Shown in pieces: positions 2,780 to 55,097 of a stretch of DNA of 64,000 bases (positions are counted from its first letter, which is position 1; the number at the start of each line of letters is the position of its first letter). The stretch comes from Gemmatimonadales bacterium (GTDB lineage Bacteria; Gemmatimonadota; Gemmatimonadetes; Gemmatimonadales; GWC2-71-9): contig JBQTHV010000172.1 of NCBI GenBank assembly GCA_052389555.1, positions 326 through 64,325 of the forward strand. The letters run 5' to 3'. Position numbers and translations under genes: made by a program. The notes beneath the pieces are model-generated. The model was not told where the DNA came from. It was given only the letters and a program-made list of their open reading frames with translations, and searched no databases.

Positions 2780-3280
2780 GTGTCACAGCGTGATATGCTC
2801 ATGGAATCCCTCGACCGCGCCTATAATAGCCGTTCCTGGCATGGCACCAATCTTCGCGGCTCCCTTCGTGGACTCAGCCTCGCGCAAGCCACCTGGCGCC
2901 CGGGCCGGGGACGCCACAACATCTGGGAGTTGGTAGTCCACGCCGCCTACTGGAAGTATGTCGTGTGGCGGCGGCTCACCGGCCGGAAGCGGGGATCCTT
3001 TCCCCTCGAGGGATCGAATTGGTTCAGACGCCTGGAGACGAGCCCGAGCGCCGGAAGCAATCGGGAGCGGGCGTGGAGACAGGATCTCGCCCTATTGGAT
3101 CAAATGCACGAAGAGCTGCGAAAGGCGGTCGCGCGAATTCCCAACCGGAAGTTGGATCGCCGAGCGCCCGGTCCGGGTACTTTCTCGAACCTCGCCATGA
3201 TCCTGGGCGTTGCGGCGCACGATCTCTATCACGCCGGCCAGATCCAGCTCCTCAAGCGGCTCTACGAGGGGAAGAGGTGA
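2780..3280 (+). CDS. DinB family protein
   Basis: 166-aa ORF with a DinB-type four-helix His pattern (HAAYWKY..., AHDLYHAGQIQLLKR). The stop codon lies inside the left arm of a repeat hairpin. Confidence 0.8.
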   Translation: MSQRDMLMESLDRAYNSRSWHGTNLRGSLRGLSLAQATWRPGRGRHNIWELVVHAAYWKYVVWRRLTGRKRGSFPLEGSNWFRRLETSPSAGSNRERAWRQDLALLDQMHEELRKAVARIPNRKLDRRAPGPGTFSNLAMILGVAAHDLYHAGQIQLLKRLYEGKR

Positions 3281-3324
3281 GAGGTAAGAGGTGTTGTGAC
3301 CTCTCACCTCTCACCTCTCACCTT
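3271..3324. repeat. zipper hairpin built from GAGAGGT heptamers (family 1)
   Basis: GAAGAGGTGAGAGGTAAGAGGTG - ttgtg - ACCTCTCACCTCTCACCTCTCACC. Lies between the convergent DinB and lipoprotein genes, so it is a possible bidirectional terminator. Confidence 0.85.
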
Positions 3325-3336
3325 ATCGTCTTCCGG

Positions 3337-4101
3337 TCAGTCGTCGAACTTGACTTCCTGGAATCCGTTCTTGAGCTCGGCCTCAAACTCGAGCAGCTCC
3401 CCGGTCGCCGCGAAGTCGAACGCTGAGAGATCCAGGACGGTCCCGTCGAACCGTCGGAACCAGACCGAAGGGTCCAGTTCGATGGTGACCGTTTCGTTGT
3501 CCTGATCCACGACCAGCGGCGGGACCAGCGCCTTCTCGATTTCGATCTCGGCATCGAAGAAGACCGTGAACGGAACCGGCTGGCCCCCGGTCGGCGTAAA
3601 GGTGCCGACCACCACCATGCTCGCCTTTTCGGGCCAGTTGGGGAATGCCGCGCGTGCCGCCGCGGCTACCGCCTCGATTTCCCCTTCTTCCTCATCGTCG
3701 TCATCGAAATCGATGTCCTCGACCTCGAACTCCAGCTCGTGGTAGGTGCCGGCCGGAACCATCGCCGTGACGGCAACCAGGTTGTCGCCGTCGAGGGGGA
3801 GCCGGACGAAGACCGGCGGCGCCTCGAACTCTTCGCAACCATCGTCCGATCCCTGGCTCTCGCACGCGTCGTCGTCCGCTTCCAGCTCGAACTCGTTCAC
3901 GATGAAGCTGATGTCGCTGATGCGGAGCGTCCCGTTGGACCCGGTGATCACCAGATCGTTGCCATTGACGGACCCGGCCGCCGCGGAGGTACGGAACCGG
4001 ATCCCGACTCGACTCTGCTCTCCCGGGGCGAGGGGATCATTGCTGCAGGCGCACACCCCGACCAGAAGGAGGAGCCCTGCCAGAGTGCTCTCGATTTTCA
4101 T
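3337..4101 (-). CDS. acidic lipoprotein of unknown function (possibly DUF4382-like)
   Basis: 254-aa ORF with signal plus lipobox LLVGVCAC and long D/E-rich stretches. The family assignment is from memory only. Confidence 0.65.
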   Translation of the reverse strand: MKIESTLAGLLLLVGVCACSNDPLAPGEQSRVGIRFRTSAAAGSVNGNDLVITGSNGTLRISDISFIVNEFELEADDDACESQGSDDGCEEFEAPPVFVRLPLDGDNLVAVTAMVPAGTYHELEFEVEDIDFDDDDEEEGEIEAVAAAARAAFPNWPEKASMVVVGTFTPTGGQPVPFTVFFDAEIEIEKALVPPLVVDQDNETVTIELDPSVWFRRFDGTVLDLSAFDFAATGELLEFEAELKNGFQEVKFDD

Positions 4102-4197
4102 AGCTTACCTCGGCTGTCTCGATTCGATCCAGCGGCGGAACGATAGATCCGCCTTCGGTCATGGAGACGATCGAGGGTGCCTTGGGGAGACAGGCAG

Positions 4198-5673
4198 CTA
4201 ATGGCGGGACGGCTCGATATCCACCTGGATCGCGCGCCACTTCCCCTGGCGGAACCGCAGCACGCTCAGGCCGCTGCGGGTCGCGTGGCCCAGCAGGATC
4301 GCGAGCCAGATGTCGGCCGGTCGTAACCCGCGGCTGGCCTCGAGGAGGGTGAGCAGGCCAAGGGGCAGCGCGACCTGGGAAATGAGGCTGATGACGAGGG
4401 GGGAACGGGTGTCTCCGGTGCCCTGCAGGCCGCCGGTGTAGGTGAGCGCGGTCGTCACCAGCAATCCCGAGAGACTCAGGAAACGCAGGAGCTGGGTACC
4501 GATTCCAACCACCACCGGGTCGGTCATGCCGAAGAGCCCGAGGAGTTGCCCCGGAATGGTGAGAAAGAGCGTGCCCACCGTGGCCGCGAGGCCGAGCCCG
4601 AAGTAGGCCGCCACGTGCACCGACTGGACGGAGCGCTCCGGCTGTTTGGCGCCCAGGTTCTGGCCCGCCACGGCCGCCGCGGCGCCCATGAGCCCCACCG
4701 ACGTCCAGGTGATCAGCGAGAACAACTCGGTGTATCCCACGGCATAGGCCGCCTGGGCCTGGGCGCTCTGCTCGAGCGAACCGATGAACCTGAGCAGCAG
4801 CACGCCCGCGACGTTCATCGCGATCCCCTGCACGCCCGCGGGCAGTCCGAACCGAAAGAGGGAGCGGATCACCGCCCAGTCCGGGCGCTTGTCCATGCCT
4901 CGCGGCCAGTGGATCACCATCCGCCCGGTGGTGAGCAGATAGAGCGCGATCCCGCTCACGATCGCGCCCGCGATCACCGTCCCGAGCCCGGCGCCCGCGG
5001 TGCCCAGCGCCGGAATCGGCCCTAACCCGCGGATCAGGATGACATTCAGGGTGATGTTGAGCGCGGTGAGCAGAATGCCGAGCCGCATCGGGGTGCGCGC
5101 GTCGCCGGCCGAGCGGAGCGCGGCACTCAGCATGAAGAAGAGCATCATGCCGAAGCTGGCCACCAGCATGATTCGCAGGTAGGGGAGCGCCTGGGCCTGG
5201 ACCTCGGGCGTGGCATGCACCAGCCGGAGCAGGGCGGGCGACAGCACCCAGCCGAGCGGGGCAAGGATGATGAGCGCCATGCCAAGCGAGGCAATGAATG
5301 CCTGGTAGACGGTGCGATTCACCTTGTCGGGCTCGTTGGCCCCGGCGAACCGCGCCACCAACACGCTCATCCCCGTGAACAGCGAGTTCACGAAAATGAT
5401 CACGACGATGAAGATCTGAATCGAGACCCCGATCGCGGCGTTGGCGGTGTAGCCGACGAAATGGCCCACCATGGCGTGATCGATCAGGCCCTGCATCCCC
5501 CCGATCACGTTCTGGATCATGGTGGGCCAGGCGAGCTTCCAGACCGCCCGCGCGATCGGCCCTTCGACGATGGCGCGGTCGAAGGGTTTCCCGCCCGGCC
5601 GGGGTGGCGGTGGCTCGGCGCTCGGCACTCGGCGCTCGGCGGCGCTCGGCCGCTCGGCGGGGGGTGAGGTCAA
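4198..5673 (-). CDS. MATE family efflux transporter
   Basis: 491-aa ORF, about 12 predicted TM helices, N-terminal MATE signature WPTMIQNVIGGMQGLIDHAMVGH. The N-terminal tail is encoded by a GCTCGGCG-type repeat array. Confidence 0.9.
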   Translation of the reverse strand: MTSPPAERPSAAERRVPSAEPPPPRPGGKPFDRAIVEGPIARAVWKLAWPTMIQNVIGGMQGLIDHAMVGHFVGYTANAAIGVSIQIFIVVIIFVNSLFTGMSVLVARFAGANEPDKVNRTVYQAFIASLGMALIILAPLGWVLSPALLRLVHATPEVQAQALPYLRIMLVASFGMMLFFMLSAALRSAGDARTPMRLGILLTALNITLNVILIRGLGPIPALGTAGAGLGTVIAGAIVSGIALYLLTTGRMVIHWPRGMDKRPDWAVIRSLFRFGLPAGVQGIAMNVAGVLLLRFIGSLEQSAQAQAAYAVGYTELFSLITWTSVGLMGAAAAVAGQNLGAKQPERSVQSVHVAAYFGLGLAATVGTLFLTIPGQLLGLFGMTDPVVVGIGTQLLRFLSLSGLLVTTALTYTGGLQGTGDTRSPLVISLISQVALPLGLLTLLEASRGLRPADIWLAILLGHATRSGLSVLRFRQGKWRAIQVDIEPSRH

Positions 5674-5682
5674 GCGCGCATT

Positions 5683-6165
5683 TTAACCGCGCCGGACGTA
5701 GTCGTCGAGCCGGTCGAAGCTTCTGGCCGCCCCATCCCTCATGCCGCTCTCCATGGCACGATCGCGCGCTTCCTTCGAGGGGTAGCGGATGGTCACGGTC
5801 ATCCGGGTGCCGCCGTTCTCCTCGGTGAGTACCAACGTGTTTACCGTCTGGGGCCAGTCGCCGCCCCACGCCTCGGTGTGGACCAGCCGCTCCGGCGGCT
5901 TCACTTCCCGATAGGTCCCTCGCATCTCCATCTCGGTACCGTCGGTCCGGCGCCAGGCGTAATGCCAGGCGCCACCGGGCCGAAGGTCGATTTCGCAAGT
6001 CGGCATGCTCCATCCCTCGGGGCCGAGCATCCAGTGCGGGACGTGGCGGGGATCGGTCCAGGCCTCCCACACCTTCTGGCGCGGTGCGTCGAACCAGCGG
6101 GTAAAAGCGAACTCCCGGTCCGAGGGGGTGCTGAAGGCGGTGGGGTTGGTTCGAGCGGCAGACAT
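5683..6165 (-). CDS. SRPBCC / AHSA1 (Aha1-like) domain protein
   Basis: Internal ATG at 6165 (MSAARTNPTAF...). FTRWFDAPRQKVWEAWTDP and the C-terminal SFDRLDDY are typical of ArsR-linked AHSA1 proteins. The longer ORF to 6261 would overlap the upstream regulator. Confidence 0.8.
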   Translation of the reverse strand: MSAARTNPTAFSTPSDREFAFTRWFDAPRQKVWEAWTDPRHVPHWMLGPEGWSMPTCEIDLRPGGAWHYAWRRTDGTEMEMRGTYREVKPPERLVHTEAWGGDWPQTVNTLVLTEENGGTRMTVTIRYPSKEARDRAMESGMRDGAARSFDRLDDYVRRG

Positions 6166-6202
6166 CAGGCACTCTCCGATCGGGTGAAGTGGTACGGTGG
6201 CA

Positions 6203-6568
6203 CTACCGTCGCCGGCGGCGCGGTCGCTTCTCGCCGTCCCCGAGGTGCTTGAGGTAGGCATCCAGGCGGTCGAGACTCGCTTCCCAGAACCGGCGATACC
6301 GAGCGACCCACCCGGCGGCCTCCTTGAGGGGACGGGGGTCGAGCCGGCAGGGCCGCCACTGGGCCTCGCGGCCCCGAGTGATGAGGCCGGCCCGCTCGAG
6401 GACCCGGAGGTGCTTGGAGATGGCGGGGAGGCTCATGGCGAACGGGCGGGCCAGCTCGGTGACGGCCGCCTCTCCCCTGGCCAGGCGGGCCAGGATAGCC
6501 CGCCGGGTGGGATCGGCCAGGGCGGCAAAGGTGGCGTCCAGACGGCGGGGCGCGGCAAGCTGAACCAT
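6203..6568 (-). CDS. ArsR/SmtB family transcriptional regulator
   Basis: 121-aa ORF with winged-HTH signature LADPTRRAILARLARGEAAVTELARPFAMSLPAISKHLRVLERAGLI. Confidence 0.85.
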   Translation of the reverse strand: MVQLAAPRRLDATFAALADPTRRAILARLARGEAAVTELARPFAMSLPAISKHLRVLERAGLITRGREAQWRPCRLDPRPLKEAAGWVARYRRFWEASLDRLDAYLKHLGDGEKRPRRRRR

Positions 6569-6616
6569 ATGGTTAAATAACTAATAGGTTAACTATGATT
6601 GCGCAAGAGGCAAGCA

Positions 6617-6639
6617 GTGAGAGGTGAGAGGTGAGAGGT
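6617..6639. repeat. three direct GAGAGGT heptamers (family 1, no inverted partner)
   Basis: GTGAGAGGTGAGAGGTGAGAGGT in the nadE/arsR-family spacer. A small perfect hairpin GGGTAC-cgaaa-GTACCC follows at about 6664-6680. Confidence 0.8.
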
Positions 6640-6743
6640 CCCATAAACACTACGCTCGGCAGGGTGGGTACCGAAAGTACCCGAACCGGATCGTTTCTTC
6701 CCCGTCGAGCCGTCCCTGGCCCCTGTTCCCCGGCCTCCGGCCC

Positions 6744-8807
6744 CTACGTATTCGGCACGTTCCGCCGCAACTCATCCAGCCACACCGTAGCCGTCGCATC
6801 GCTGGGTGCCCGCCAGTCCCCTCGCGGCGAAAGGGAACCGCCCGACCCCACCTTCGGCGCGTTAGGCAACGCCGAGCGCTTGAACTGGCTCTGCTCGAAA
6901 AAGCGCAGCAGAAACACCTCGAGCCATCGCGTGATCTCTGCGAGCGTGTACTGATGCCGGCGCTCCGGCGGTAGCAGCTCGGGCCAGGTGCCCCGCTCCC
7001 GATCACCCCAGGCCTGGTGCGCGAGGTATGCCACCTTGCTGGGCCGGAACCCGAAGCGGGCGGTGTAGTACAGGTGAAAGTCTTGCAGCTCGAAGGGACC
7101 CACCACCTCCTCGGTGCTCTGCAGCACGTCTCCGGAGGCCGGAACGAGCTCGGGCGAGATCGCCGTCTCGAGAATGGAGTGCAGCGTCTCGTTCACGTCG
7201 GCCGGGAACTCACCCGACCTCGCGACCCATCGGATGAGGTATTGAATCAGGGTCTTGGGGATGGACGCGTTGACGCTGTAGTGCGCCATCTGGTCGCCCA
7301 CCCCATAGGTCGTCCAGCCCAGCGCGAGCTCGCTCAGGTCGCTGGTCCCCACCACCAGGCCGCCGTGGAAGTTGGCCAGCCGGAACAGGTGGGAGGTCCG
7401 CTCCCCCGCTTGCACGTTCTCGTAGGTCCGGTCGTGGACCGGCTTCCCTTCGGCCGCCGGATGGCCCAGGTCCCGCAGCATCTGCTGGGCCGAAGGCCGA
7501 ATGTCGATCTCGCCGGCGGTGATGCCGAGCGCCCGCATCAGGCGCCGGGCGTTCGTGCGGGTTAGGTCGCTCGTCGCGAAGCCGGGCAGTGAGAAGCCCA
7601 GCACGTTGGTGCGCGGCAGGCCGAGGCGGTCCATCGTCCGGGCCGCGACCAGCACCGCCTGAGTCGAGTCCAGCCCTCCCGATACGCCCATGACCACGTT
7701 CTCGATGCCGGTGCCGGCGAGCCGCTGGGCCAGGCCATGGACCTGGATGTGGTACGCCTCGTAGCAGCGGGCATCGAGCTGGGCGGGATCGCTTGGCACG
7801 TAGGGAAACCGCTCGACGGTCCGGCGGAGCTCCTGGGACCCAGGGGGGACCTCGAACGCGAAGGGGACCCGCCGAAGTTCCCTAACCCGCTCCCGGTATT
7901 CACCCGCCTGGTCGTTGAAGCTGGTGAGCCGGGAGCGTTCCTGCACGAGCCGCTCGAGGTCGAGGTCGGCCACCGTGAGCTGCTCGTCCGCAGCAAAGCG
8001 CGAGGATTCGGCCAGCAGCACGCCATTCTCGTAAACCAGGGCCTGGCCATCCCAGGCGAGATCGGTAGTCGATTCGCCGGCGCCCGACGCGGAGTAGAGA
8101 TAGGCGGCGACGCACTTGGCGGACTGGCCGGCGCAGAGCTGCCGCCGGTAGTCCGCCTTCCCGATCGTGATATTACTGGCCGAGAGGTTGGCCAGGATCG
8201 TCGCGCCGGCCAGGGCTCCCCAGGTGCTGGGCGGGATCGGGACCCACACGTCCTCACAGATCTCCACAAACAGCGCGAACCCATCGAGGTTGGTCGCTTC
8301 GAAGATCAGGTCATTGCCGAACGGGATCGCCTGGCCGAGCAGACCGACCTCGCGTCCCACCGCCAGCCCGCCCGGCGTGAACTGGCGGCGTTCATAGAAC
8401 TCGCGGTAGTTCGGCAGATAGCTCTTGGGAGTGACGCCGAGGAGACGGCCCCGGTAGATCACCACGGCGCAGTTGAAGAGCTTGCCTTCGAATCGGAGCG
8501 GGGCGCCGACGATCAGCACCGGGGAGAGCGACCGGCTCTCGGTAATCAGCCGATCGAGGGAGCTCAGGACGGCATCGAGCAGCGCGTCCTGCTGGTGGAG
8601 GTCGTCGTTGCTGTAGGCGGAGAGCCCCAACTCGGGGAAGAGGGCGACAGCGGCGTCGAGTTCCGAGGCTCGGCGCGCGAGCCCGAGGGTGCGCTCAAGA
8701 TTGAAGGCGGGATCGGCAATCCTAACCCGCGGCGTCGCGACCGCGCCGCGGATGAACCCGTGCCGGTAGATCGAGCGGAAGGGGAGAGACGCGGGCGGCC
8801 GGTTCAC
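6744..8807 (-). CDS. nadE: glutamine-dependent NAD+ synthetase (long form with N-terminal nitrilase domain)
   Basis: 687-aa ORF with an N-terminal carbon-nitrogen hydrolase domain and a C-terminal synthetase domain carrying the SGGLDS PP-loop. Confidence 0.92.
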
Positions 8808-10154: not shown

Positions 10155-10221
10155 GGCTCGGCACCCGGCGCTCGGCGCTCAACGCCCGGTACCCGGCACT
10201 CGGCACTCGGGGCTCGGCACC
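10155..10221. repeat. tandem GCTCGGC(N) octamer array (intergenic)
   Basis: GGCTCGGCACCCGGCGCTCGGCGCTCAACGCCCGGTACCCGGCACTCGGCACTCGGGGCTCGGCACC. The same word family occurs at 5617, 14888, 30885, 44085-44465, 53643 and 56690. Confidence 0.8.
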
Positions 10222-10304
10222 TGGCCGGGCGGTCAGACCCGCGTTTGACCACGCGGCTCTACAGGGTCAATTTCTTCGCGTCCATTCCTCATCCGGTTGA
10301 TTCC

Positions 10305-13532: not shown

Positions 13533-13540
13533 GAGATAGT

Positions 13541-21162: not shown

Positions 21163-21250
21163 GGCTATTGGCTATTAGCTATTGGCTATTGGTCAACAGC
21201 CCGACGGGTTAGGACAGTGTCCAATAGCCAATAGCCAATAGCCAATAGCC
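21163..21250. repeat. zipper hairpin built from CCAATAG/CTATTGG heptamers (family 2)
   Basis: GGCTATTGGCTATTAGCTATTGGCTATTGG - TCAACAGCCCGACGGGTTAGGACAGTGT - CCAATAGCCAATAGCCAATAGCCAATAGCC. The loop carries CGGGTTAGG. Confidence 0.9.
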
Positions 21251-23880: not shown

Positions 23881-23942
23881 GCGGGGAATCTAGGGGACCA
23901 CGGGGCCAGGGGCCGGGGGTCAGGGACCAGGGAAACCCGGCG

Positions 23943-24297: not shown

Positions 24298-24328
24298 AGG
24301 AATCCGCCAACCGATGAAAAACAACAAC

Positions 24329-24409
24329 AATCCACAGATTACACGGATTAGCGCGATGAACCGCGCAGTTCAATGACCGAATCAGCGTAATCCGTGTAAT
24401 CTGTGGATT
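24329..24409. repeat. perfect 22-bp inverted repeat (AT-rich) in the arsR-arsM spacer
   Basis: AATCCACAGATTACACGGATTA - 37 nt - TAATCCGTGTAATCTGTGGATT, followed by GCTTTTTCTG. A partial third copy TATCCACAGACCACAAG lies at 24423-24439. Confidence 0.85.
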
Positions 24410-24459
24410 GCTTTTTCTGCGGTATCCACAGACCACAAGTCTAACCCTGGGAGACGAAG

Positions 24460-29658: not shown

Positions 29659-29681
29659 CCGCCCAACCGCCCAACCGCCTG

Positions 29682-34065: not shown

Positions 34066-34206
34066 TTCCAGCCTCCGGACCGGTGTCGAGTTGAAGCAGG
34101 ACCCCGTCGAGCGGGGCCCGAGAATCTACGTCGGACGGTAAATTACGCGCTATTGCCGAATCAGGTTGAGATGCAGGGGACCGGGGCCAGGGGCCGGGGA
34201 CCAGGG

Positions 34207-34560
34207 ATGGAAGTGCAAGTCTTCGGGGTCCGGAAGAGTCCCGCAACCCGCGCGGCACTTCGGTTCTTCGCTGAGCGGCGGATCAAGGTGCACTTCGTGG
34301 ATCTGGCCGAGCGGCCGGCCTCTCGTGGCGAGCTGACCCGATTCGCGCAGAAGCTCGGAGTGCCTGCATTGATCGATCGGGAGTCGCGGCGCTTCGCCGA
34401 GCTCGGCCTCAATGCGGCGGGCTATTCCGAGGAGCGCTGGCTCGAGCGCCTGGTGGAGGAACCGCTACTCCTCAGGATGCCGCTGGTGCGGCGGCAGCAG
34501 CAGCTCACGGTCGGACCGGCGGAGGCAACCTGGAAGGAATGGGTGAGCGGTGAGCGGTGA
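34207..34560 (+). CDS. ArsC/Spx/YffB family (glutaredoxin-fold) protein
   Basis: ATG 34207. MEVQVFGVRKSPATRAALRFFAERRIKVHFVDL... matches the family layout but lacks the N-terminal CxxC/Cys (S at that position). Confidence 0.75.
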   Translation: MEVQVFGVRKSPATRAALRFFAERRIKVHFVDLAERPASRGELTRFAQKLGVPALIDRESRRFAELGLNAAGYSEERWLERLVEEPLLLRMPLVRRQQQLTVGPAEATWKEWVSGER

Positions 34561-34580
34561 GAGGTGAGAGGTGAGAGGGA
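34541..34580. repeat. direct GTGAGCG/GTGAGAG heptamer array (family 1)
   Basis: GGGTGAGCGGTGAGCGGTGAGAGGTGAGAGGTGAGAGGGA, spanning the stop of the ArsC-family gene. Followed at 34664-34745 by CCGTCCTG/CCGTCCAG octamer units inside the next ORF. Confidence 0.8.
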
Positions 34581-34618
34581 GCCGCGTCAACAGTCGACCA
34601 TCACGGGGACGGCGTAGT

Positions 34619-35569
34619 GTGAAGCGAGTACGCTGGAGTGGATTGCTGTTGGCGGGCCTCTTACCGGCCGTCCTGCCGTCCGGCCGTCCCGCCGTCCTGT
34701 TTCCGGCCATCCAGCCGTCTAGCCGTCCAGCCGTCCAAGCTCCGCCCGGGACCGACATCTATCTCGTCCCGCTGGCGCGGCGGGGAGCCGAGCTCAGGGC
34801 GGGGACGCCGGTCAACCTCACCGCGCGCGCGGGTTATGATAACCAGCCGTCTTTTTCACCCGATGGGCGGAGTCTGTACTACACCTCGGCCCGGGAGGGT
34901 CAGACTGATATCGTCCGGTACGATCTCGATTCCCGCCGAACCACGCAGGTACTCTCGACCTCTGAGAGCGAATACTCGCCCACCGTAATGCCGGACGGGC
35001 AACATCTCTCCGTGGTTCGGGTGGAGCGGGATTCGACCCAGCGACTCTGGCAGTTTACCCTCGCGGGCACGGCGCCCAAGCCCGTGCTCGAGGCCGTCAA
35101 ACCGGTCGGATACCACGCATGGCTCAACGCCGATACGGTCTTTGTGTTCGTGCTGGGAACCCCCGCGACGTTGCAGCGGGCCGATGTGCGCATCGGAACC
35201 GCAATCGTGGTTGCGCGCGACATCGGTCGCGGTCTGGCAAAGATTCCGGGCCGGCATGCGGTCAGTTACGTCCAGCGGGATTCGGCCGGCGGGGCGATCC
35301 ACGAGCTCGATCCCGTCTCGGGACGAAGTGGCAAGCTCGCACCGCTGCCCGAGAGGAACGAGTTCTTCGGGTGGACTCCCGCCGGCGAGCTTCTCTCGGC
35401 GAGCGGCAACGCGTTGCTCTGGTGGCGGTCCGACCGCGGTGGATGGAACGTGGTCACCCGATTCACCGAACCCGGGCTCCAGCGCATCAGCCGGATTGCG
35501 GTGAGCCCGCGGGGAGATTTCCTGGCGCTGGTGGGGGAAGACAATTCTCGGCCACCGGGCAACCCTTGA
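34619..35569 (+). CDS. PD40/TolB-like beta-propeller protein
   Basis: YDNQPSFSPDGRSLYYTS and SEYSPTVMPDGQHLSVVR blades. Start uncertain: GTG 34619 (MKRVRWSGLLLAGLL) or GTG 34571 inside the repeat. Confidence 0.75.
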   Translation: MKRVRWSGLLLAGLLPAVLPSGRPAVLFPAIQPSSRPAVQAPPGTDIYLVPLARRGAELRAGTPVNLTARAGYDNQPSFSPDGRSLYYTSAREGQTDIVRYDLDSRRTTQVLSTSESEYSPTVMPDGQHLSVVRVERDSTQRLWQFTLAGTAPKPVLEAVKPVGYHAWLNADTVFVFVLGTPATLQRADVRIGTAIVVARDIGRGLAKIPGRHAVSYVQRDSAGGAIHELDPVSGRSGKLAPLPERNEFFGWTPAGELLSASGNALLWWRSDRGGWNVVTRFTEPGLQRISRIAVSPRGDFLALVGEDNSRPPGNP

Positions 35570-38206: not shown

Positions 38207-39325
38207 ATGACGACTGATCGCATTCATAATTTCAACGCGGGCCCCGGCGTGCTTCCGGAGCCGGTCCTGCATCAGGCGCAGCGGGACCTCTGGAACATCG
38301 CCGGCACCGGAATCGGGATCGCCGAGCACAGCCATCGCGGCAAACTCTTCGAGCGGATCATTGCGGAAGCGGAAGCGGAAGCCCGGGAGCTGGCGGGGAT
38401 TCCCGATGAATACCACGTGCTGTTCATCCAGGGTGGCGCGACGCTGCAGTTCGCGATGATCCCGATGAACCTGCTCCCGCCGGACGGGACCGCAGACTAT
38501 CTGGTTACCGGCACCTGGGCGCAGAAGGCGCTCGCGGAGGCGAAGAAGTTCGGCCAGACCCATGTCGCGCTCGACGGGGCTCCCGGGGGATTCACCCGGA
38601 TTCCTCCGGCGGCGGAGATTCGCTATTCGCCGGCGCCCGCCTATGTCCACTTCACCACCAACAACACGATCTACGGTACCCAGTGGAAGGGCGAGCCACC
38701 GGTCCCCGGGGTTGTGCCGCTCGTGGCTGATGCGTCGAGCGACATCTTCAGCCGCCCGATCGACGTCACGAAGTACGGCCTGATCTACGCGGGGGCGCAG
38801 AAGAACCTCGGCCCGGCCGGCATCACCATGGTGATCATTCGGAACGATCTGGTGGACGGCGGCCCGACGAGTCTCGCGACCCTGCTCCAGTACCGGACCT
38901 ACGTCAAGGAGCATTCGCTCCATAACACGCCGCCGACCTTCGCCATCTATATGGTCGGCTTGGTGCTCAAGTGGATCCGGGCAAACGGCGGACTGGCGGG
39001 CATGGCGGAGCGGAATGAGGCGAAGGCGAAGTTGCTCTACGACTTTCTCGAGGGCAGCGAGCTCTTTCGTGGGACGGTCGACGCGGGCAGCCGCTCCCTC
39101 ATGAACGTCTGCTTCCGCTCGCCGTCCGAAGAGCTCGACGCGCGGTTCGTGTCCGAAGCGGCGCACCGCGGGTTCGAAGGGCTTCGAGGCCACCGCGCCT
39201 TGGGCGGCATGCGGGCAAGTCTGTACAACGCGTGCTCCCTGGCGAGTGTCGCCGCGCTGGTGGCGTTCATGCAGGAGTTCGAGCGGGCCCATCGGGGTGC
39301 CGCCGCGGTGACGAGTGAGCGGTGA
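38207..39325 (+). CDS. serC: 3-phosphoserine/phosphohydroxythreonine aminotransferase
   Basis: 372 aa. FNAGPGVLPEPVL N-terminus and PLP-lysine region YAGAQKNLGPAG. Confidence 0.92.
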   Translation: MTTDRIHNFNAGPGVLPEPVLHQAQRDLWNIAGTGIGIAEHSHRGKLFERIIAEAEAEARELAGIPDEYHVLFIQGGATLQFAMIPMNLLPPDGTADYLVTGTWAQKALAEAKKFGQTHVALDGAPGGFTRIPPAAEIRYSPAPAYVHFTTNNTIYGTQWKGEPPVPGVVPLVADASSDIFSRPIDVTKYGLIYAGAQKNLGPAGITMVIIRNDLVDGGPTSLATLLQYRTYVKEHSLHNTPPTFAIYMVGLVLKWIRANGGLAGMAERNEAKAKLLYDFLEGSELFRGTVDAGSRSLMNVCFRSPSEELDARFVSEAAHRGFEGLRGHRALGGMRASLYNACSLASVAALVAFMQEFERAHRGAAAVTSER

Positions 39326-42624: not shown

Positions 42625-42729
42625 AAGAGGTGAGAGGTAAAAGAGGTAAGAGGTGAGAGGTGAGAGGTGAGAGGCCCGCGGGTTAGGATCCTCTCACTGT
42701 TCACCTCTCACCTCTCACCTCTCACCTCC
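42611..42729. repeat. large zipper hairpin built from GAGAGGT heptamers (family 1)
   Basis: Left arm 42611-42674 (GAGGTGAGAGGTAAAAGAGG... units), loop CCCGCGGGTTAGGAT, right arm CCTCTCACTGTTCACCTCTCACCTCTCACCTCTCACCTCC. Both flanking convergent genes end inside the arms. Confidence 0.9.
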
Positions 42730-43682: not shown

Positions 43683-44663
43683 CTAGTCGCGAATGCGGGC
43701 CCGCAGCTTCTCGAGCGAATCGGCGGGGAACGCGGGCGGCGCGACGAGCAGGTGGACGATCCGTCCGTCGCGCAGCTGCTGGGCCAGCACGAGGTCTCCA
43801 TAGGAGGTCGGGTAGACCACCCGCACCGTGTCGCCGCGGACTTCCAGGCGAGCGGGAATCAAGCCGGGGATCAGCTTGAGGGTGCCGTCGAGCCGGCGGA
43901 GCGCGTCGGGGAAATTCACCGGTTGTGCGGCGCCACCGAGTTCGAGCTTTACCGCGGAGAAGGCGGGTGTCGCCGGCGGCTGGGCAACTCCCGTGACGAC
44001 GTTCTCTTCCGCTCGCCGGGCTTGGTCGAGCCGGCCCATGACGCGTGGCTCGGCGGCTGGCTTGGTGGGCTCTGCGGGGGACTCGAGGTTCGGCGCTCGG
44101 CCCTCGGCAGCACGGTCAGCAGCTTGCTGGGCGGGCGGCACGTCGGCGCGGCGGCCGGACGGCTCGGCGGCTTGCCGGCTCGGCGTCGGTGGCTCGGGGC
44201 TCGGCGCTCGGCTCTCGGCCCTCGGCAGTGGGGCACTCGCAGATTCTATGGCGGCTCGATCAGCGGCCGCTTCGAGCCGTTCCGCCGGCGGAGCGGCAGT
44301 GTCCGCCAAGGACACCCGCTGCCCGCTCGGGAGCCCTCGGATCGCGTATCCTAACCCGGCTGCGGCAACCACTGTAGCGGCCCAGGCGAGTGGACCCACC
44401 AGGCGGCGAATCGCCGAGCGCCGAGCGCCGAGTGCCGAGTCCCGACTGCCGAGTGCCGGGCGCGGAGCGCCGCGCTCCGCGCGCACTGGCGGCTCGATCA
44501 CCTGGACCAAGCGGTCCGCTTCCGTCATCCACGCGCGCTCGGTGTCGAGCCGCGCGCGGCACTCCGCGCAACCCTCCAGGTGAGCCTGAATGGGAGCGAG
44601 CTCGGCGGAGGGAATCTCCCCATCGAGTAAGGCGTGCAGGGTTCCTTCATCAAGATGCGACAT
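43683..44663 (-). CDS. anti-sigma factor (zf-HC2 type), membrane-anchored
   Basis: ATG 44663. HLEGCAECRARL zinc-finger anti-sigma motif and a central TM helix. The periplasmic part is rich in repeat-encoded low complexity. Confidence 0.8.
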   Translation of the reverse strand: MSHLDEGTLHALLDGEIPSAELAPIQAHLEGCAECRARLDTERAWMTEADRLVQVIEPPVRAERGAPRPALGSRDSALGARRSAIRRLVGPLAWAATVVAAAGLGYAIRGLPSGQRVSLADTAAPPAERLEAAADRAAIESASAPLPRAESRAPSPEPPTPSRQAAEPSGRRADVPPAQQAADRAAEGRAPNLESPAEPTKPAAEPRVMGRLDQARRAEENVVTGVAQPPATPAFSAVKLELGGAAQPVNFPDALRRLDGTLKLIPGLIPARLEVRGDTVRVVYPTSYGDLVLAQQLRDGRIVHLLVAPPAFPADSLEKLRARIRD

Positions 44664-45162
44664 GCTGCTTCTCCTCGTCGCCAGCCGGGTCGGCCCGGAA
44701 CGCCTCGACCAGCCGGCGCCGGGCGCGGGCAAGCGTGGTACCGACCGCGCCCCGGGCGAGTCCCAACGTGGCGGCGATTTCGTCGTAGTTGAACCCTTCC
44801 GCCTTGAGCAGAAGGGCTTCCCGGTCCCGCGGCGAGAGCCGGTCCAGCGCGGCCCTAACCCGCGCGATCCGCTCGCTCCGGTCGAGCTCCTCGTCGGGCC
44901 AGGGCACCCGCTCGGTCAGCTCGGCCCGGTAGAGCACCAGGCGCCGATCGTGGCGCGCGGCGGTGCGGGCCTGCTCGCGGACCAGGTTGAGGGCTACCGC
45001 GAAGAGCCAGGGCCGCGGGTTATGCGGTGGCGCGGCCACCGCGCGGGCGAAGACTTCCTGGGCGATCTCCTCGGCCCGGTCGGCATCGCCGGTGCGGCGA
45101 TACAGCATCCGCACCAGCGAGTCGTGATACTGCGCGAAGAGATCGCCCAGCGGGACGGTCAT
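44650..45162 (-). CDS. ECF (sigma-70 family group IV) RNA polymerase sigma factor
   Basis: 170 aa with region 2 (EIAQEVFARA) and region 4 HTH (YDEIAATLGLARGAVGTTLARARRRL). Confidence 0.88.
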   Translation of the reverse strand: MTVPLGDLFAQYHDSLVRMLYRRTGDADRAEEIAQEVFARAVAAPPHNPRPWLFAVALNLVREQARTAARHDRRLVLYRAELTERVPWPDEELDRSERIARVRAALDRLSPRDREALLLKAEGFNYDEIAATLGLARGAVGTTLARARRRLVEAFRADPAGDEEKQHVAS

Positions 45163-47584: not shown

Positions 47585-47659
47585 GGTGGTTGTAGCTCAA
47601 CTGGTTAGAGCGCCGGACTGTGGCTCCGGAGGTTGCGGGTTCAAGTCCCGTCAGCCACC
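47585..47659 (+). tRNA. tRNA-His (anticodon GTG)
   Basis: Hand-folded cloverleaf. Extra G-1 opposite C73, acceptor GTGGTTG/CAGCCAC, anticodon loop CTGTGGC, T-loop TTCAAGT. No encoded CCA. Confidence 0.85.
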
Positions 47660-47702
47660 CTGGACGGGTTCTCGCTCCCAACGCGATCGGGGGGGGAGCA
47701 GT

Positions 47703-47775
47703 AGGTCCGTAGCTCAATTGGTAGAGCACCGGTCTCCAAAACCGGGGGTTGGGGGTTCGATTCCCTCCGGGCCTG
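47703..47775 (+). tRNA. tRNA-Trp (anticodon CCA)
   Basis: Acceptor AGGTCCG/CGGGCCT, anticodon stem CCGGT/ACCGG with loop CTCCAAA, T-arm GGGGG-TTCGATT-CCCTC. Confidence 0.85.
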
Positions 47776-47782
47776 CTTACGA

Positions 47783-47899
47783 CAGGAGGTAGTAAGTAGG
47801 AGGTAGTAAGAAGGGACAACGGTGGACACGGCGTGATTCTCGAGGCTGACTAGGGCCTCCGACGTCCCTACTCACTACCTCCTACTTACTACCTCCTAG
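47783..47899. repeat. zipper hairpin built from AGGAGGTAGTAAG words (family 3) inside the tRNA cluster
   Basis: CAGGAGGTAGTAAGTAGGAGGTAGTAAGAAGGGA - about 49 nt - TCCCTACTCACTACCTCCTACTTACTACCTCCTAG, between tRNA-Trp and tRNA-Glu. Confidence 0.9.
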
Positions 47900-47905
47900 C
47901 GAGAT

Positions 47906-47978
47906 GGCGCTATCGTCTAGAGGCCCAGGACACAGCCCTCTCAAGGCTGGAACACGGGTTCGAATCCCGTTAGCGCTA
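47906..47978 (+). tRNA. tRNA-Glu (anticodon CTC)
   Basis: Glu-type D-arm GTCTAGAGGCCCAGGAC, anticodon loop CTCTCAA, T-arm ACGGG-TTCGAAT-CCCGT. The acceptor has a G1-T72 wobble pair. Confidence 0.8.
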
Positions 47979-47992
47979 TGAAGAGAAGAGGA

Positions 47993-48064
47993 GGCCCCAT
48001 CGTCTAACGGTCAGGACACCACTCTTTCAAGGTGGTAATACGGGTTCGATTCCCGTTGGGGTCA
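47993..48064 (+). tRNA. tRNA-Glu (anticodon TTC)
   Basis: Glu-type D-arm GTCTAACGGTCAGGAC, anticodon loop CTTTCAA, T-arm ACGGG-TTCGATT-CCCGT. Confidence 0.8.
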
Positions 48065-48082
48065 TGATCCTGACCGACTCGG

Positions 48083-48155
48083 GCGCCGCTAGCTCAACTG
48101 GCAGAGCAAGTGACTCTTAATCACTAGGTTCGGGGTTCGATTCCCTGGCGGCGCA
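48083..48155 (+). tRNA. tRNA-Lys (anticodon CTT)
   Basis: Acceptor GCGCCGC/GCGGCGC, anticodon stem AGTGA/TCACT with loop CTCTTAA, T-arm CGGGG-TTCGATT-CCCTG. Confidence 0.85.
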
Positions 48156-48191
48156 CTTCGCCCTGATCGCCCTACACTCATCGAGGTTCCC

Positions 48192-48902: not shown

Positions 48903-48910
48903 CCCGACAT

Positions 48911-52106: not shown

Positions 52107-52321
52107 CTTCCCCTTCCGAACGTGCGGTCGAGGACCCGCGCCGGCTCCTGGCAGAGGCGGGCCACGCGCTGCGGGGTCCTCTCACGGTGCTCCGGGGCGA
52201 GCTGGAGCTGGCCCTAACCCGCGAGCGGTCATCCGAGGAATATCAGGACGTGCTCCGCCGCTGTCTCGACGAGGTGGTGCGCCTGACCCGGCTGGTCGAG
52301 GGGTTCACGAGCAACGCCTGA
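52103..52321 (+). CDS. HisKA (DHp)-only stub of a sensor histidine kinase
   Basis: 72 aa. H-box AGHALRGPLTVLRGELELA and the second DHp helix, with no TM/sensor/HAMP and no HATPase_c. ATGA-coupled to the regulator. Confidence 0.6.
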   Translation: MTSPSERAVEDPRRLLAEAGHALRGPLTVLRGELELALTRERSSEEYQDVLRRCLDEVVRLTRLVEGFTSNA

Positions 52322-53634
52322 TGCGCCGTCTCCTCCTGGCCGGGATGTCGCTCCTCGGACCCGTCGGGCTGGCGGCCCAGCGGCCGGGCGAATGGGACCG
52401 GGTGCTCGAACCGCGGGTGGCGGCGGCCCTCCCGCAGGTGGTCGCCTGGCGGCGCGACATCCACCAGCATCCCGAGCTCTCCAATCGCGAGGTCCGCACC
52501 GCCAAGCTGGTGGCGGATCACCTAACCCGGCTTGGTCTGGACGTGCGGACCGGGGTCGCTCACACCGGGGTCATCGCGATTCTTCGCGGCGGGAAACCCG
52601 GGCCGGTGGTGGCGCTGCGGGCGGACCTGGACGCCCTGCCGGTCACCGAGCTGGTGGATCTCCCGTTCAAGTCCACCGCCACCGCCGAGTACAACGGGCA
52701 GCAGGTTGGGGTGATGCACGCCTGCGGCCACGACAATCACGTTGCCATCCTGTTGGGCGCTGCGACGGTCCTCGCGGGGATTCGCGCGCAGATCCCCGGG
52801 ACCATCACGTTTCTCTTCCAGCCCGCCGAGGAAGGACCGCCGCTCGGCGAGACGGGCGGCGCGAGCCTCATGATCCGGGAGGGCGCTCTCGAGAATCCCG
52901 CCCCGGGCGCGATCTTTGGGCTGCACGTGTGGCCCGAGCGGGTGGGGACGATCACCTGGCGGGCCGGTCCGTTCATGGCCGCCTCGGACCAGTTGCGGAT
53001 CGTGGTGCGGGGCAAGCAGACCCACGGCGCGGTGCCCTGGGGCGGTGTCGATCCCATCACGGTCGCCTCCCAGATCGTGCTGGGACTCCAGACCGTGGTG
53101 AGCCGGCAGACCGACCTAACCCGCACGCCCGCCATCGTCACCATCGGGGCGATCCAGGGCGGCAACCGCGGCAATATCATCCCGGACAGCGTGGTGATGC
53201 TCGGCACGGTGCGCACCTTCGACGAAGCGGTGCGGGCCGACGTAAAGCGCCGGATCGAGCGGACCGCGCGCTCGATCGCGGAGGCGGCCGGAGCAACCGC
53301 CGTGGCTGATTTTCCCGGCGTCAATAACCCGGTGACCTACAACGATCCCGCGCTTACCGAGCGCATGCTGCCGACGTTGCGGCGGGTCGCGGGCGAGGGC
53401 AAGCTGATCCAGACGGGCCTCCAGACTCCGTCCGAGGACTTTGCCTGGTATCAGCAGAAGGTGCCGGGACTCTTCGTCTATCTCGGCATCGTTCCCGAGG
53501 GGAAAGATCCGGCCGCCGCTCCGCGGAATCACTCTCCCTATTTCTTCGCCGATGAGGGCGCGCTTCCGGTGGGGGTGCAGCTCCTAGCGACCCTCGCGCT
53601 CGACTGGCTCTCCGGTCCAGGCCGACCTCGGTGA
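52321..53634 (+). CDS. M20D family amidohydrolase (N-acyl-amino acid amidohydrolase / hippurate hydrolase type), secreted
   Basis: ATG 52321 with a signal peptide. HQHPELSNRE, MHACGHDNH and FQPAEEG metal-binding motifs. Confidence 0.88.
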   Translation: MRRLLLAGMSLLGPVGLAAQRPGEWDRVLEPRVAAALPQVVAWRRDIHQHPELSNREVRTAKLVADHLTRLGLDVRTGVAHTGVIAILRGGKPGPVVALRADLDALPVTELVDLPFKSTATAEYNGQQVGVMHACGHDNHVAILLGAATVLAGIRAQIPGTITFLFQPAEEGPPLGETGGASLMIREGALENPAPGAIFGLHVWPERVGTITWRAGPFMAASDQLRIVVRGKQTHGAVPWGGVDPITVASQIVLGLQTVVSRQTDLTRTPAIVTIGAIQGGNRGNIIPDSVVMLGTVRTFDEAVRADVKRRIERTARSIAEAAGATAVADFPGVNNPVTYNDPALTERMLPTLRRVAGEGKLIQTGLQTPSEDFAWYQQKVPGLFVYLGIVPEGKDPAAAPRNHSPYFFADEGALPVGVQLLATLALDWLSGPGRPR

Positions 53635-54977
53635 GCGGCAGCGCCGCCGAGCCGCCGAGCCGCCGAGCCGTCCCGCCGTCCGGTCCTGCGCCGGAGCTGG
53701 CCCGCCGAATCGGGCGGTGGGCGCTCACGGGGCTGGTCATCAACGGGATCGTCGGCAGCGCGATCTTCGGGTTACCCGCGACCGTCGGCGAGCGGCTCGG
53801 CCGCGGCGCGCCGCTGGCTTGGGCCCTCGCCGCGGTGCTCATCGGGATCGTGGTGGCCTGCTTTGCCGAGGTGGCCTCGCGGTTCCGCGAGGCGGGCGGG
53901 CCGTACCTCTTCGTGCAGGCCAGCTTCGGGCGGTTCGCGGGCCTCCAGACCGGGTGGATGGCCTACCTAACCCGCCTCACTGCCGCGGGCGCGGTCGCGA
54001 ATCTCCTGGTGAGCTATCTCGGCGTGATCGTGCCCGGCGCCGATGCGGTGCCCGGCCGGTACGTCGTCCTCGCGGCGGTCATCGGTGGTCTGGCCGCGGT
54101 GAACTATCGCGGCGTCGGACCGGGCGCGGGGGTCAGCAGCGCGTTTGCCATCCTGAAGCTGCTCGGCCTGTTCGTCTTTGCCGGGGCCGGGCTCCTCTGG
54201 CTGCTTGGGCACGAGGGAATCCCGGCTCCCGCCGCTCCCCCGGGCATCGATCCCTGGCTGGCTACCCTGCTCGTGCTGGTCTTCGCGTACGGGGGCTTCG
54301 AAGCGGCCCTGATGCCGCTGGCGGAAGCGAAGAACCCCGAGCGCGACGCGCCGGTGGCGCTGTTCACCGCCCTCGCTACGGCCACCCTGGTCTACATGCT
54401 GGTCCAGACCGTGGTGACCCTCACCCTGCCTAACCCGGGCGCCACGACGACCCCGCTGGCCGACGCGGCGCGGGGGTTCCTGGGGACCGGCGGGGCGATG
54501 TTCATCGCGGCGACCGCCTTGCTCTCGACCTTCGGCTATCTGGCCGGTGCGATGGTCAATGTGCCGAGGCTGACGTTTGCGATGGCGGAGCGCGCGGAGC
54601 TCCCCCGCGGGTTCGCCGCGGTGCATCGGCGCTTCCGGACTCCGTTTGTATCGATTCTCGTCTTCGCGGGTCTGGCCTTCGTGCTCGCGGCGAGCGGGAG
54701 TTTTCTCCAGAACGTGAGTCTCTCGGTGGCGGCGCGGCTCATTACCTACGGCCTGGTGTGCGCCGCCCTCCCGGCGCTCCGGCGCCGCGACGGCACCGCC
54801 AGAACCGCTTCCCCTGCCGCCTTCCGGCTCCCCGGAGGACCGGTGCTGGCCGGGCTTGGCGTGTTAGGCATGGCGCTCATGGCGGTGCAGGTGAGCGCGC
54901 GCGAGGTGGTGATCATGGGCGTGGTGATCGTGCTGGCGAGCGTGCACTACTTCGTCGTGAGTCGGCGGGCGGATTAG
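53631..54977 (+). CDS. APC superfamily amino acid permease
   Basis: 448 aa, 12 TM helices, GIVGSAIFGLPA N-terminal signature. The N-terminal tail is repeat-encoded. Confidence 0.88.
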   Translation: MSGSAAEPPSRRAVPPSGPAPELARRIGRWALTGLVINGIVGSAIFGLPATVGERLGRGAPLAWALAAVLIGIVVACFAEVASRFREAGGPYLFVQASFGRFAGLQTGWMAYLTRLTAAGAVANLLVSYLGVIVPGADAVPGRYVVLAAVIGGLAAVNYRGVGPGAGVSSAFAILKLLGLFVFAGAGLLWLLGHEGIPAPAAPPGIDPWLATLLVLVFAYGGFEAALMPLAEAKNPERDAPVALFTALATATLVYMLVQTVVTLTLPNPGATTTPLADAARGFLGTGGAMFIAATALLSTFGYLAGAMVNVPRLTFAMAERAELPRGFAAVHRRFRTPFVSILVFAGLAFVLAASGSFLQNVSLSVAARLITYGLVCAALPALRRRDGTARTASPAAFRLPGGPVLAGLGVLGMALMAVQVSAREVVIMGVVIVLASVHYFVVSRRAD

Positions 54978-55097
54978 CTAGTGGCTATGGGCTATTGGCT
55001 ATTGGCTATTGGTCAACAGCCTAACCCGCAGGGCTTTTTCCAATAGCCAATAGCCAATAGCCAATAGCCAATAGCCTCTTCCAATAGCCAATAGCCC
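54977..55097. repeat. zipper hairpin built from CCAATAG/CTATTGG heptamers (family 2)
   Basis: GCTAGTGGCTATGGGCTATTGGCTATTGGCTATTGG - TCAACAGCCTAACCCGCAGGGCTTTTT - (CCAATAG)x5..CCAATAGCCAATAGCCC. The loop begins like the 21163 copy and carries CCTAACCCGC. Confidence 0.9.

Follow-up and report, generated by a model that had tools for sequence, protein, structure and literature searches.

The 64-kb window of a Gemmatimonadales genome analyzed here (64,000 nt of contig JBQTHV010000172.1) harbors numerous periodic hairpins, hereafter called zippers, in which a tandem array of a short word is followed by a loop and then by an array of the reverse-complement word. With a probability of about one half, zippers represent small, labile non-coding palindromic repeats built of slippage-prone 7–9-nt words: these words would be copied between sites, their arms would slip and be mirrored by template switching, and the resulting elements would accumulate at the 3' ends of genes. 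By composition, they resemble long simple-sequence repeats (LSSR) and short tandemly repeated repetitive (STRR) sequences; by behavior, they resemble repetitive extragenic palindromic (REP) sequences or transposable elements of the miniature inverted-repeat kind (MITEs). The evidence includes the architecture of the elements, their non-random occurrence, their gene context, their turnover in related genomes, the independent evolution of their arms, and multi-copy phage families with conserved cores.

The window belongs to a metagenome-assembled genome (MAG) whose closest isocitrate dehydrogenase (ICDH) matches come from Gemmatimonadales MAGs (75–78% identity); its GC content amounts to ~67%, dropping to ~58% past 58 kb. 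Tandem arrays were called by Tandem Repeats Finder (TRF) and the pairing of the arms was established by an inverted-repeat search; together they confirmed the architecture proposed in the first-pass annotation of this DNA, an earlier reading made without database searches, TRF showing arrays at each coordinate given there. The detector, i.e., a TRF array followed by a same-period array of the reverse-complement unit no more than 150 nt away, returned 11 zippers in the window, and not one of the 30 dinucleotide-preserving shuffles yielded any; the window has 54 arrays with three or more copies vs. ~3 per shuffle (range 0–8). Together with Z13531, revealed by the inverted-repeat search, and a 9-mer element at 24323–24415 (Z24323), which the earlier reading had missed, this makes 13 full zippers in ~58 kb, accompanied by three composites (6617, 29486, and 34542). 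Twelve of the 14 loci listed previously are true zippers; the other two (6617 and 34541) turned out to be composites with non-complementary arrays.

The predicted RNA folding energy of zippers ranges from -35 to -87 kcal/mol (z from -5.5 to -14.2 vs. shuffles), the loops of the 13 pairs span 5–58 nt, and the repeat periods across the elements are 7, 8, 9, and 14. At least seven unrelated words occur within 64 kb, and word families do recur at distant loci, as previously claimed; the word described as 13 nt long (AGGAGGTAGTAAG) has a TRF period of 14 nt and comprises two diverged heptamers. The arms are of unequal length and can pair in several registers, the latter having also been anticipated. 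The 5' arm is the G-rich, C-poor one in 11 of the 13 elements, a polarity true of both strands since the element is palindromic; a universal rule of a G-rich 5' arm was rejected on the same count. Outward-facing stop codons fail as a cause of this polarity, as the 5' arms of the GGCTATT family and of the 9-mer element are essentially devoid of stop triplets. A search of Rfam at gathering thresholds matched five tRNAs and no family corresponding to zippers.

Comparison with syntenic loci of relatives (76–87% SerC identity) revealed presence/absence polymorphism: orthologous sites carry the same word, another word, or no element. The whole serA–serC junction of the window is occupied by Z38080 (38080–38198; GGCTATT/CCAATAG, z -14.2), and the phosphoserine aminotransferase gene (serC) lies at 38207–39325. 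The relatives L082 and L083 possess the same word family at this site (GGCTATT or AGCTATT vs. CCAATAG) with other unit numbers and a loop of 14 nt vs. 57 nt in the window, the latter enclosing an inner GC hairpin. In the closest relative, L081 (87% SerC identity), the site harbors another word, CTGAAGA; in L084 and L089, the junction is 17–19 nt long with no element.

The same variety is documented at other sites. The 3' end of the amidohydrolase operon carries arrays in all three genomes, with different words in each, and the sites orthologous to the 29486 composite are taken by full zippers of other words in L082 and L084. Downstream of ArsC, the window displays a GGTGAGA composite, L082 the TGGATAGT and CAGTAGC arrays, L089 a 9-mer zipper, and L084 nothing. 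Upstream of the VIT-VWA gene, L084 contains a full AGCTATC/core/AGCTGAT zipper, and L089 only the core hairpin and the right array. In relatives, the ICDH or DUF3293/COX15, epimerase/aminotransferase, and tRNA-Trp/tRNA-Glu junctions measure 7–23 nt or overlap and have no hairpin; Z42610 is absent from the orthologous junction in both L082 and L084, and the tRNA cluster of L082 has no insert, with a spacer of ~7 nt where the window has the 115-nt Z47784. Overall, elements come, disappear, and give way to others; certain sites are occupied repeatedly, and none requires an element.

The refuting possibility raised by the first-pass annotation, namely that the arrays are assembly artefacts of low-complexity reads, is excluded for the class of elements by identical zippers in independent assemblies of relatives. 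The loci L082 (from ENA) and L083 (from NCBI) are 99.9% identical and their zippers are identical; the loci L095 and L099, originating from two metagenomes, match at 100% along a 5.4-kb stretch including zippers; and the zippers of L084 are located on a 1.3-Mb contig. Moreover, the elements fit exactly into the spaces between genes, to which they provide in-frame stop codons, and a same-word element is present at the orthologous serA–serC site of another genome. Certain features would fit an artefact: the window derives from a MAG, its species was not found in any second assembly (the SerC cluster P0001, 100% identical to the window protein, has one member on one contig), and the L081 contig stops within an array. 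Taken together, an artefactual origin of zippers is hardly credible. As for a wider census in public collections, the exact ICDH protein is not on record there, a metagenome scan for the 14-mer word returned three loci, none of the window's species, and a search with the L,D-transpeptidase gave no close relatives. The contig of L081 ends (positions 1–30) within the CTGAAGA array at the serA–serC site; since it stops within an array, this suggests that zippers break short-read assemblies.

The two arms of a zipper evolve independently. They comprise 3.6 vs. 10 units in Z17569 and 5.7 vs. 8.3 units in Z54973, and in the serA–serC element of L082 the left arm is homogenized to AGCTATT, the right arm still being the complement of GGCTATT. 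The homogenized arm gives rise to periodic A·C mismatches on the transcribed strand (-41.6 kcal/mol, compared with -59.6 kcal/mol for the opposite strand). Such a pattern is indicative of slippage and concerted evolution inside each arm with no strict correction between arms. Selection at the RNA level for the strand with G·U pairs on the transcribed side was considered and dropped, since three cases in the window fit it and three in relatives are opposite.

A number of observations argue for copying between loci. The 28-nt arm composed of two AGGAGGTAGTAAGT units with the inner AGGGA/TCCCT stem is ~90% conserved at three distant loci of the window. The words AGCTATC, ACGGTAAG, and CACAGATTA reappear in other Gemmatimonadota genomes at non-orthologous sites, e.g., AGCTATC in L084 and the CACAGATTA 9-mer at another site in L089. 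A further case is L095, a phage contig encoding a tail tube and a tail protein Z (IMG/VR, GC 65%), where five zippers are interspersed (515–8620) among the late structural genes, following those for the putative capsid and the tail tube. They share a conserved core of ~60 nt, and one pair of copies shows 98% identity over 123 nt; another IMG/VR contig, L090, possesses three AATTGAC zippers with a common core.

The loops provide a hint of template switching. In Z21163 and Z54973 both loops start with TCAACAG, followed by a 14–16-nt segment lying in opposite orientations. Spacer inversion is a signature expected of interstrand template switching, a documented mechanism (PMC8794818). In our case this sign is no more than suggestive, because the segment includes the 9-mer CGGGTTAGG, over-represented in this genome. 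For the same reason, the loop core shared by Z21163 and Z42610 (CCCGNCGGGTTAGGA) was rejected as a mobile core: it stems from CGGGTTAGG. A second shared core, that of Z47391 and Z47784, is unique to these two neighboring elements.

The same data bear on the possibility that zippers are pure mutational by-products with neither mobility nor function, i.e., tolerated junk arising when hairpins stall replication, slippage builds arrays beside terminator stems, and template switching mirrors them. Such an origin would agree with the independent evolution of the arms, with the non-essentiality of the elements in relatives, with the composites in which non-complementary arrays flank a core hairpin (6617, 29486, 34542, and 5983 in L082), and with the intermediate form found upstream of the VIT-VWA gene (core plus one array in L089 vs. 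the full zipper in L084). It would not readily explain the recurrence of the same 14-nt and 7-nt words at three to four distant loci and at non-orthologous sites elsewhere, the 98% identity of the phage copies with the core included, or the 115-nt element found in place of a ~7-nt spacer. Hence, the by-product account seems rather improbable.

The gene context of zippers is likewise far from random. According to the gene map, which is approximate (our own GC3-based open reading frame (ORF) calls plus Pfam), seven elements reside at convergent junctions (3273, 13531, 15576, 17569, 42610, 49921, and 54973), four at same-strand (tandem) junctions (21163, 24323, 38080, and 40170), one in the interior of a tRNA cluster (47784), and one in a divergent region (47391), the latter being the sole element away from any 3' end. 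The bias to 3' ends and convergent junctions, already noticed in the earlier reading, is borne out: zippers occupy seven of the ~10 convergent junctions vs. six of the ~44 others (Fisher p = 0.0008 on this approximate map). All seven convergent elements overlap both stop codons or come within 11 nt of them; the junctions are filled by the elements, and most adjacent stop codons are inside the arms or touch them. Most of the zipper words carry stop codons themselves. An illustrative example is Z49921, where a single arm word encodes the GGSK-stop ending of both flanking proteins (…RRTGGSK-stop of the epimerase and …KLLGGSK-stop of the aminotransferase); in L082, the orthologues end with …GFAP-stop and …ESVKS-stop, and the genes are 7 nt apart. 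As for Z47784, it splits a plus-strand cluster of five tRNAs at 47586–48156 (His, Trp, Glu-CTC, Glu-TTC, and Lys-CTT), being located 7 nt 3' of tRNA-Trp and 6 nt before tRNA-Glu.

If transcribed, zippers would form RNA stems of 20–60 bp. At 3' ends such stems probably act in U-tract-independent termination or pausing, as a barrier to 3' exonucleases, or in RNase III-type processing, so a role as terminator or mRNA stabilizer is plausible as judged from sequence and position. The absence of a U-tract, reported in the first-pass annotation for all the elements, holds for 11 of the 13; T runs were found at Z17569 and Z24323. Intrinsic terminators have stems of 5–15 bp vs. 20–60 bp in zippers, which also depart from the usual terminator definition (a GC-rich stem of ~5–20 bp, a 3–8-nt loop, and a U-tract behind it). 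Canonical terminator-like sites in the 3–22-kb segment numbered 10 vs. 8.7 expected by chance, and none of those in this scanned segment coincides with a zipper. An obligatory function of this kind is weakened by the same sites of relatives (7–23 nt or overlapping), which lack a hairpin, and by the position of Z47784 6–7 nt from tRNA genes on both sides.

It could be suggested that zippers are dedicated bidirectional factor-independent terminators selected for and evolved in place, with periodic arms building long polymerase-stopping stems that need no U-tract. The exact filling of seven of the ~10 convergent junctions speaks for such a scenario, as do the GC-rich core hairpins enclosed by several zippers and the occupation of the serA–serC site and the amidohydrolase 3' end across genomes despite the change of word. 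With canonical sites at the chance level, another type of terminator might be needed, and the A5/T5 flanks of Z24323 are like those of a classical bidirectional terminator. Still, evolution in place as terminators is unlikely, considering that orthologous convergent junctions are short or overlapping and hairpin-free, that Z47391 lies in a divergent, promoter-type region, and that five copies are found within a phage late structural operon. Z47784 is embedded in a same-strand tRNA cluster; transcription presumably reads through it, as there is no room for a promoter. The identical complex words at unrelated loci would also be left unexplained.

Considering zippers as labile palindromic repeats, the following sequence of events can be envisaged. 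An element or its word would be copied to new sites, as the shared complex words and near-identical copies suggest. Each arm would then gain and lose units independently by replication slippage, a step apparent as a pattern in the arms, with the outcome that arms become unequal and variants may spread inside one arm. Template switching at the hairpin, within one strand or between strands, could create or restore the reverse-complement arm and could invert the loop; like the copying mechanism, it is conjectured from the sequences. Finally, elements would persist only where they do little harm, i.e., at gene 3' ends and foremost at convergent junctions, as their distribution indicates; there they may grow until the last codons are reached or substituted.

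Several findings weigh against this reading. Strain pairs with 99.9–100% identity show no change in copy number, so slippage is not extremely fast. Loops within a family are far more diverged in the window (~40–50% identity) than the arms, which is odd for simple recent transposition and implies that the arms need constraint or homogenization. There is no sign of selection at the RNA level, since only three of the six same-strand cases have a transcribed strand more stable than its counterpart. No transposase, REP-associated tyrosine transposase (RAYT), or other candidate enzyme was detected by Pfam among the ~40 larger ORFs of the window, and the mobility enzyme sought in the same way in the low-GC island at 58–64 kb yielded just a methylase–endonuclease fusion. 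No target-site duplication was found in the 20-nt flanks of 12 elements or in filled-vs.-empty comparisons. Finally, the 64-kb window and the ~20-kb loci of relatives are too small a sample for a genome-wide census.

In the first-pass annotation, the elements were not recognized as a described class of repeats. Their standing apart from known classes is not supported: precedents are the inverted GGGAATC pairs of Xanthomonas (PMC4692102) and the STRR hairpins of cyanobacteria (PMC2670836). Rehm et al. (2015) reported ~185 arrays of the heptamer GGGAATC per Xanthomonas genome, comprising 2–26 units and ~90% intergenic, of which 70–75 form close convergent inverted pairs capable of folding into a stem-loop (PMC4692102). 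These arrays are biased to positions within 50 bp of stop codons or overlapping them, Xcc and Xac usually have the same type of array at different lengths, and the arrays form G-quadruplex (G4) structures in vitro (PMC4692102). The 13 pairs of the window are likewise opposite-strand arrays of one word, convergent and near stops, and the G-rich array comes first in Xanthomonas as it does in 11 of the 13 window elements. The differences are that Xanthomonas relies on one dominant G-tract word (GGGNATC, with G-quadruplex formation and a preference for four units) vs. at least seven words in the window, and that pairing is the rule in the Gemmatimonadota window (13 full zippers vs. three composites).

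In filamentous cyanobacteria, STRR 7-bp repeats forming intergenic hairpins are “not unusual”, e.g., between hupS and hupL, and roles in transcript stability, translational coupling, and termination were proposed for them (PMC2670836). According to the part of PMC4679880 citing Mrazek 2007, heptamers are the commonest unit of long simple-sequence repeats in prokaryotes. The arrays of zippers correspond to the LSSR/STRR type (a 5–11-nt unit, mostly non-coding) and are intergenic in the window; unlike them, STRR are described mainly as direct arrays, built of other words in another lineage, and Nostoc possesses “only a few” inverted pairs (Rehm et al., PMC4692102).

The likeness to mobile palindromes, discussed above for L095 with its multi-copy family and conserved core, is also partial. 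The REP/BIME/REPIN families and MITEs are palindromes scattered over intergenic regions, often at 3' ends and between convergent genes; REP-type families show presence/absence polymorphism and affect mRNA 3' ends in E. coli. In contrast to them, zipper arms are internally periodic, with a variable number of units. The REP foot GTAG is encountered within some zipper words at no constant position, and no foot is fixed across families; no RAYT (TnpA_REP) was found among the Pfam-scanned ORFs, a statement confined to the window. The arms resemble terminal inverted repeats, as in MITEs, but no target-site duplication was seen in the flanks or at filled-vs.-empty sites, and no insertion sequence among the scanned ORFs of the window. 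The zippers of L095, known here from sequence, occur between late structural genes of one operon and in this respect are similar to the intercistronic hairpins of phage T7, which serve as RNase III processing sites. A CRISPR origin was rejected on gene context and architecture. Overall, zippers represent a richer form of an already known and poorly understood type of repeat, and those of Gemmatimonadota are undescribed as far as a limited literature search shows. New here are the many words per genome, the predominance of pairing, the rewriting of both C-termini at convergent junctions, the occurrence in tRNA and phage operons, and the cross-phylum spread.

An action at the DNA level could also be imagined, with the arrays serving as binding sites for a sequence-specific protein or adopting non-B DNA, e.g., a cruciform, a G-quadruplex, or an attC-like recombination site. 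Periodic words do resemble iterated binding sites; Xanthomonas arrays form G4 in vitro (PMC4692102), and the AGGGGCC arrays at 23892 and 34174 of the window carry G-tracts. The attC sites of integrons, too, are structured palindromes at cassette 3' ends. The many words (at least seven unrelated ones in one genome) together with their turnover at one site argue against a single sequence-specific binder, and the GGG tracts that G4 requires are missing from most words (GAGAGGT, GGCTATT, AGCTATC, AGGAGGTAGTAAGT, and ACGGTAAG), G-tracts being confined to the solo AGGGGCC arrays. An attC identity was rejected: the flanks are syntenic housekeeping genes in four relatives and not cassettes, no integrase was found among the scanned ORFs, and the element ends are word arrays, not RYYYAAC/GTTRRRY core sites. 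A DNA-level function is, therefore, considered very unlikely.

The distribution beyond the lineage was surveyed in 80 loci around ICDH genes across bacteria and archaea. In Gemmatimonadota, clear zippers were found in L001 and L016, along with a weaker TRF pairing in L005. A Bacteroidetes MAG (L032) contains five zippers in 21 kb, with stems of up to ~66 bp, one of that length being perfect (-136 kcal/mol), and zippers also occur in L014, an Anaerolineae MAG; bare TRF pairings were recorded in L048 and L056, and nearly all remaining loci of the 80 showed no zippers. The repertoire of words is restricted and partly shared, those of the GAGAGGT-like, CCAATAG-like, and AGGAGGTAGTAAGT types being encountered again in unrelated genomes, and the 14-mer word forms arrays also in organisms with 41–46% GC. 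These coincidences might be taken to mean that zippers are cross-phylum self-propagating periodic palindromes, seeded and mirrored at hairpins by dedicated machinery, which could be a nuclease or transposase specific for hairpins, or else a polymerase or repair function. We regard this as quite unlikely; if true, it would signify mobile or templated DNA of a novel type, not passive slippage.

If zippers are labile palindromic repeats, rapidly evolving periodic hairpins mold a considerable part of the gene boundaries of Gemmatimonadota, and the same apparently applies to some Bacteroidota and Chloroflexota and to the phages of these groups. Such hairpins change the C-termini of proteins, provide stop codons, and probably set mRNA 3' ends with no need for a U-tract. 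Zippers would offer a natural setting in which to examine how long RNA or DNA stems are built and maintained by replication slippage and template switching, and could be employed as high-resolution strain markers. They also call for caution in assembly and annotation, as contigs break in zippers and ORFs are over-extended through them. The GGGAATC pairs of Xanthomonas and the STRR hairpins of cyanobacteria may belong to one widespread phenomenon.

The individual elements are as follows. Z03273 (3271–3325; GAGAGGT, arms of ~23/27 nt, loop of 5 nt, -35.3 kcal/mol, z -5.45) separates the convergent DinB (plus) and hypothetical (minus) genes, its left arm containing the DinB stop codon. The same word in Z42610 (42608–42728; 8.7/5.6 units) is combined with a 15-nt loop bearing CGGGTTAGG, and the stops of the convergent DUF3293 (plus) and COX15 (minus) genes are both within the arms. 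Three zippers have the 14-nt period: Z13531 (13531–13638; two AGGAGGTAGTAAGT units per arm, inner AGGGA/TCCCT stem, loop of 54 nt), occupying the whole convergent junction 3' of the BNR/sortilin gene; Z47784 (47784–47898; AGGAGGTAGTAAGT, z -8.1); and Z49921 (49921–50029; z -7.8) between the epimerase (plus) and aminotransferase (minus) genes. The 8-mers are represented by Z15576 (15569–15664; GGCAGGAC, loop of 12 nt), located between the convergent M15 peptidase (plus) and L,D-transpeptidase (minus) genes with two stops in or at the arms, and by Z17569 (17562–17711; ACGGTAAG/CTTACCGT). The left arm of the latter is degenerate, the right one consists of ~10 near-perfect copies and is directly followed by a T run, and the stops of the convergent YHS (plus) and dodecin (minus) genes are within the arms.

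The GGCTATT/CCAATAG family further includes Z21163 (21163–21250; 4.3 units, a 28-nt loop with CGGGTTAGG, z -10.1), flanked by two minus-strand genes (the 3' end of glyoxalase and the 5' end of Pyr_redox), and Z54973 (54973–55096; 5.7/8.3 units, loop of 27 nt) between the convergent amino-acid permease (plus) and DDAH (minus) genes; the CGGGTTAGG motif in the loop of Z54973 is oriented opposite to that of Z21163. Z40170 (40161–40299; AGCTATC, 4.6/5.4 units, loop of 58 nt) is 3' of the rhodanese gene. Z24323 (9-mer CACAGATTA/CACGGATTA, two units per arm, z -8.4) lies between tandem plus-strand genes with A5 upstream and T5 downstream and, due to these flanks, looks like a bidirectional intrinsic terminator. 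Z47391 (47391–47511), in which the words GGAGTTA and GCGAGTA are combined, is found where the VIT-VWA gene (minus) and tRNA-His (plus) diverge.

As to the composites, the one at 6617–6740 includes 3.3 units of GTGAGAG, a core hairpin, and a non-complementary array of four GGCCCCT-like units, and is flanked by two minus-strand genes (NAD synthase 3' end and ArsR 5' end). The composite at 29486–29679 comprises 4.4 units of AGACGGAC, a strong 34-bp core hairpin (29533–29632), and 3.8 units of the non-complementary ACCGCCCA. At 34542–34737, a GGTGAGA array (5.3 units), within which the ArsC stop falls, is followed by a structured core, a short CCTCTTACC complement (~10 nt), and nine units of the unrelated GCCGTCCA.

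The 5'-arm words of Z03273, Z42610, Z13531, Z47784, Z49921, and Z47391 include several near-perfect Shine–Dalgarno motifs (GAGGTGA, AGGAGGT, TAGGAG), and the partner arms resemble the anti-Shine–Dalgarno sequence (ACCTCCT), a likeness which the G/A-rich composition could make coincidental. Solo arrays of AGGGGCC (five units each, with G-tracts), possibly capable of G-quadruplex formation judging by their sequence, are present at 23892–23932 and 34174–34206, both in divergent (promoter-type) intergenic regions; a related array at ~6706–6740 makes up the right side of the 6617 composite.

Heptamer arrays of another kind, GCCGAGC/GCTCGGC, are found in coding regions at 5613–5641, 30892–30936, 44178–44226, 44412–44484, and 56683–56760, and at 10156–10225 in a stop-to-stop ORF upstream of the called start of the BNR gene. 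Since these arrays are inside coding regions, three heptamer units (21 nt) equal seven residues; they encode low-complexity stretches, e.g., APSAERRAPSTERRA, right after signal peptides or in linkers. The anti-sigma (zf-HC2) gene at 43683–44732 holds two inverted arrays of this kind 186 nt apart.

The 9-mer CGGGTTAGG is the most frequent one in the window: 38 exact copies (16 on the plus and 22 on the minus strand), or ~1 per 1.7 kb, and all 38 occurrences of GGGTTAGG are preceded by C. The copies are mostly intragenic, in several frames and both orientations, with three in zipper loops (21205–21213, 42679–42687, and 55020–55028). In relatives, a locus (up to 21 kb) contains just 1–3 copies, and none are present in more distant Gemmatimonadota. 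From its sequence and distribution, CGGGTTAGG looks like a lineage-specific motif similar to uptake sequences or HIP1. The island at 58000–64000 (GC ~58% vs. 67%) probably represents recently acquired DNA, as there are no zippers or CGGGTTAGG copies there; it encodes a fusion of a DNA methylase with an Mrr-type restriction endonuclease domain (59427–61067, minus strand) and several ORFs with no Pfam match.

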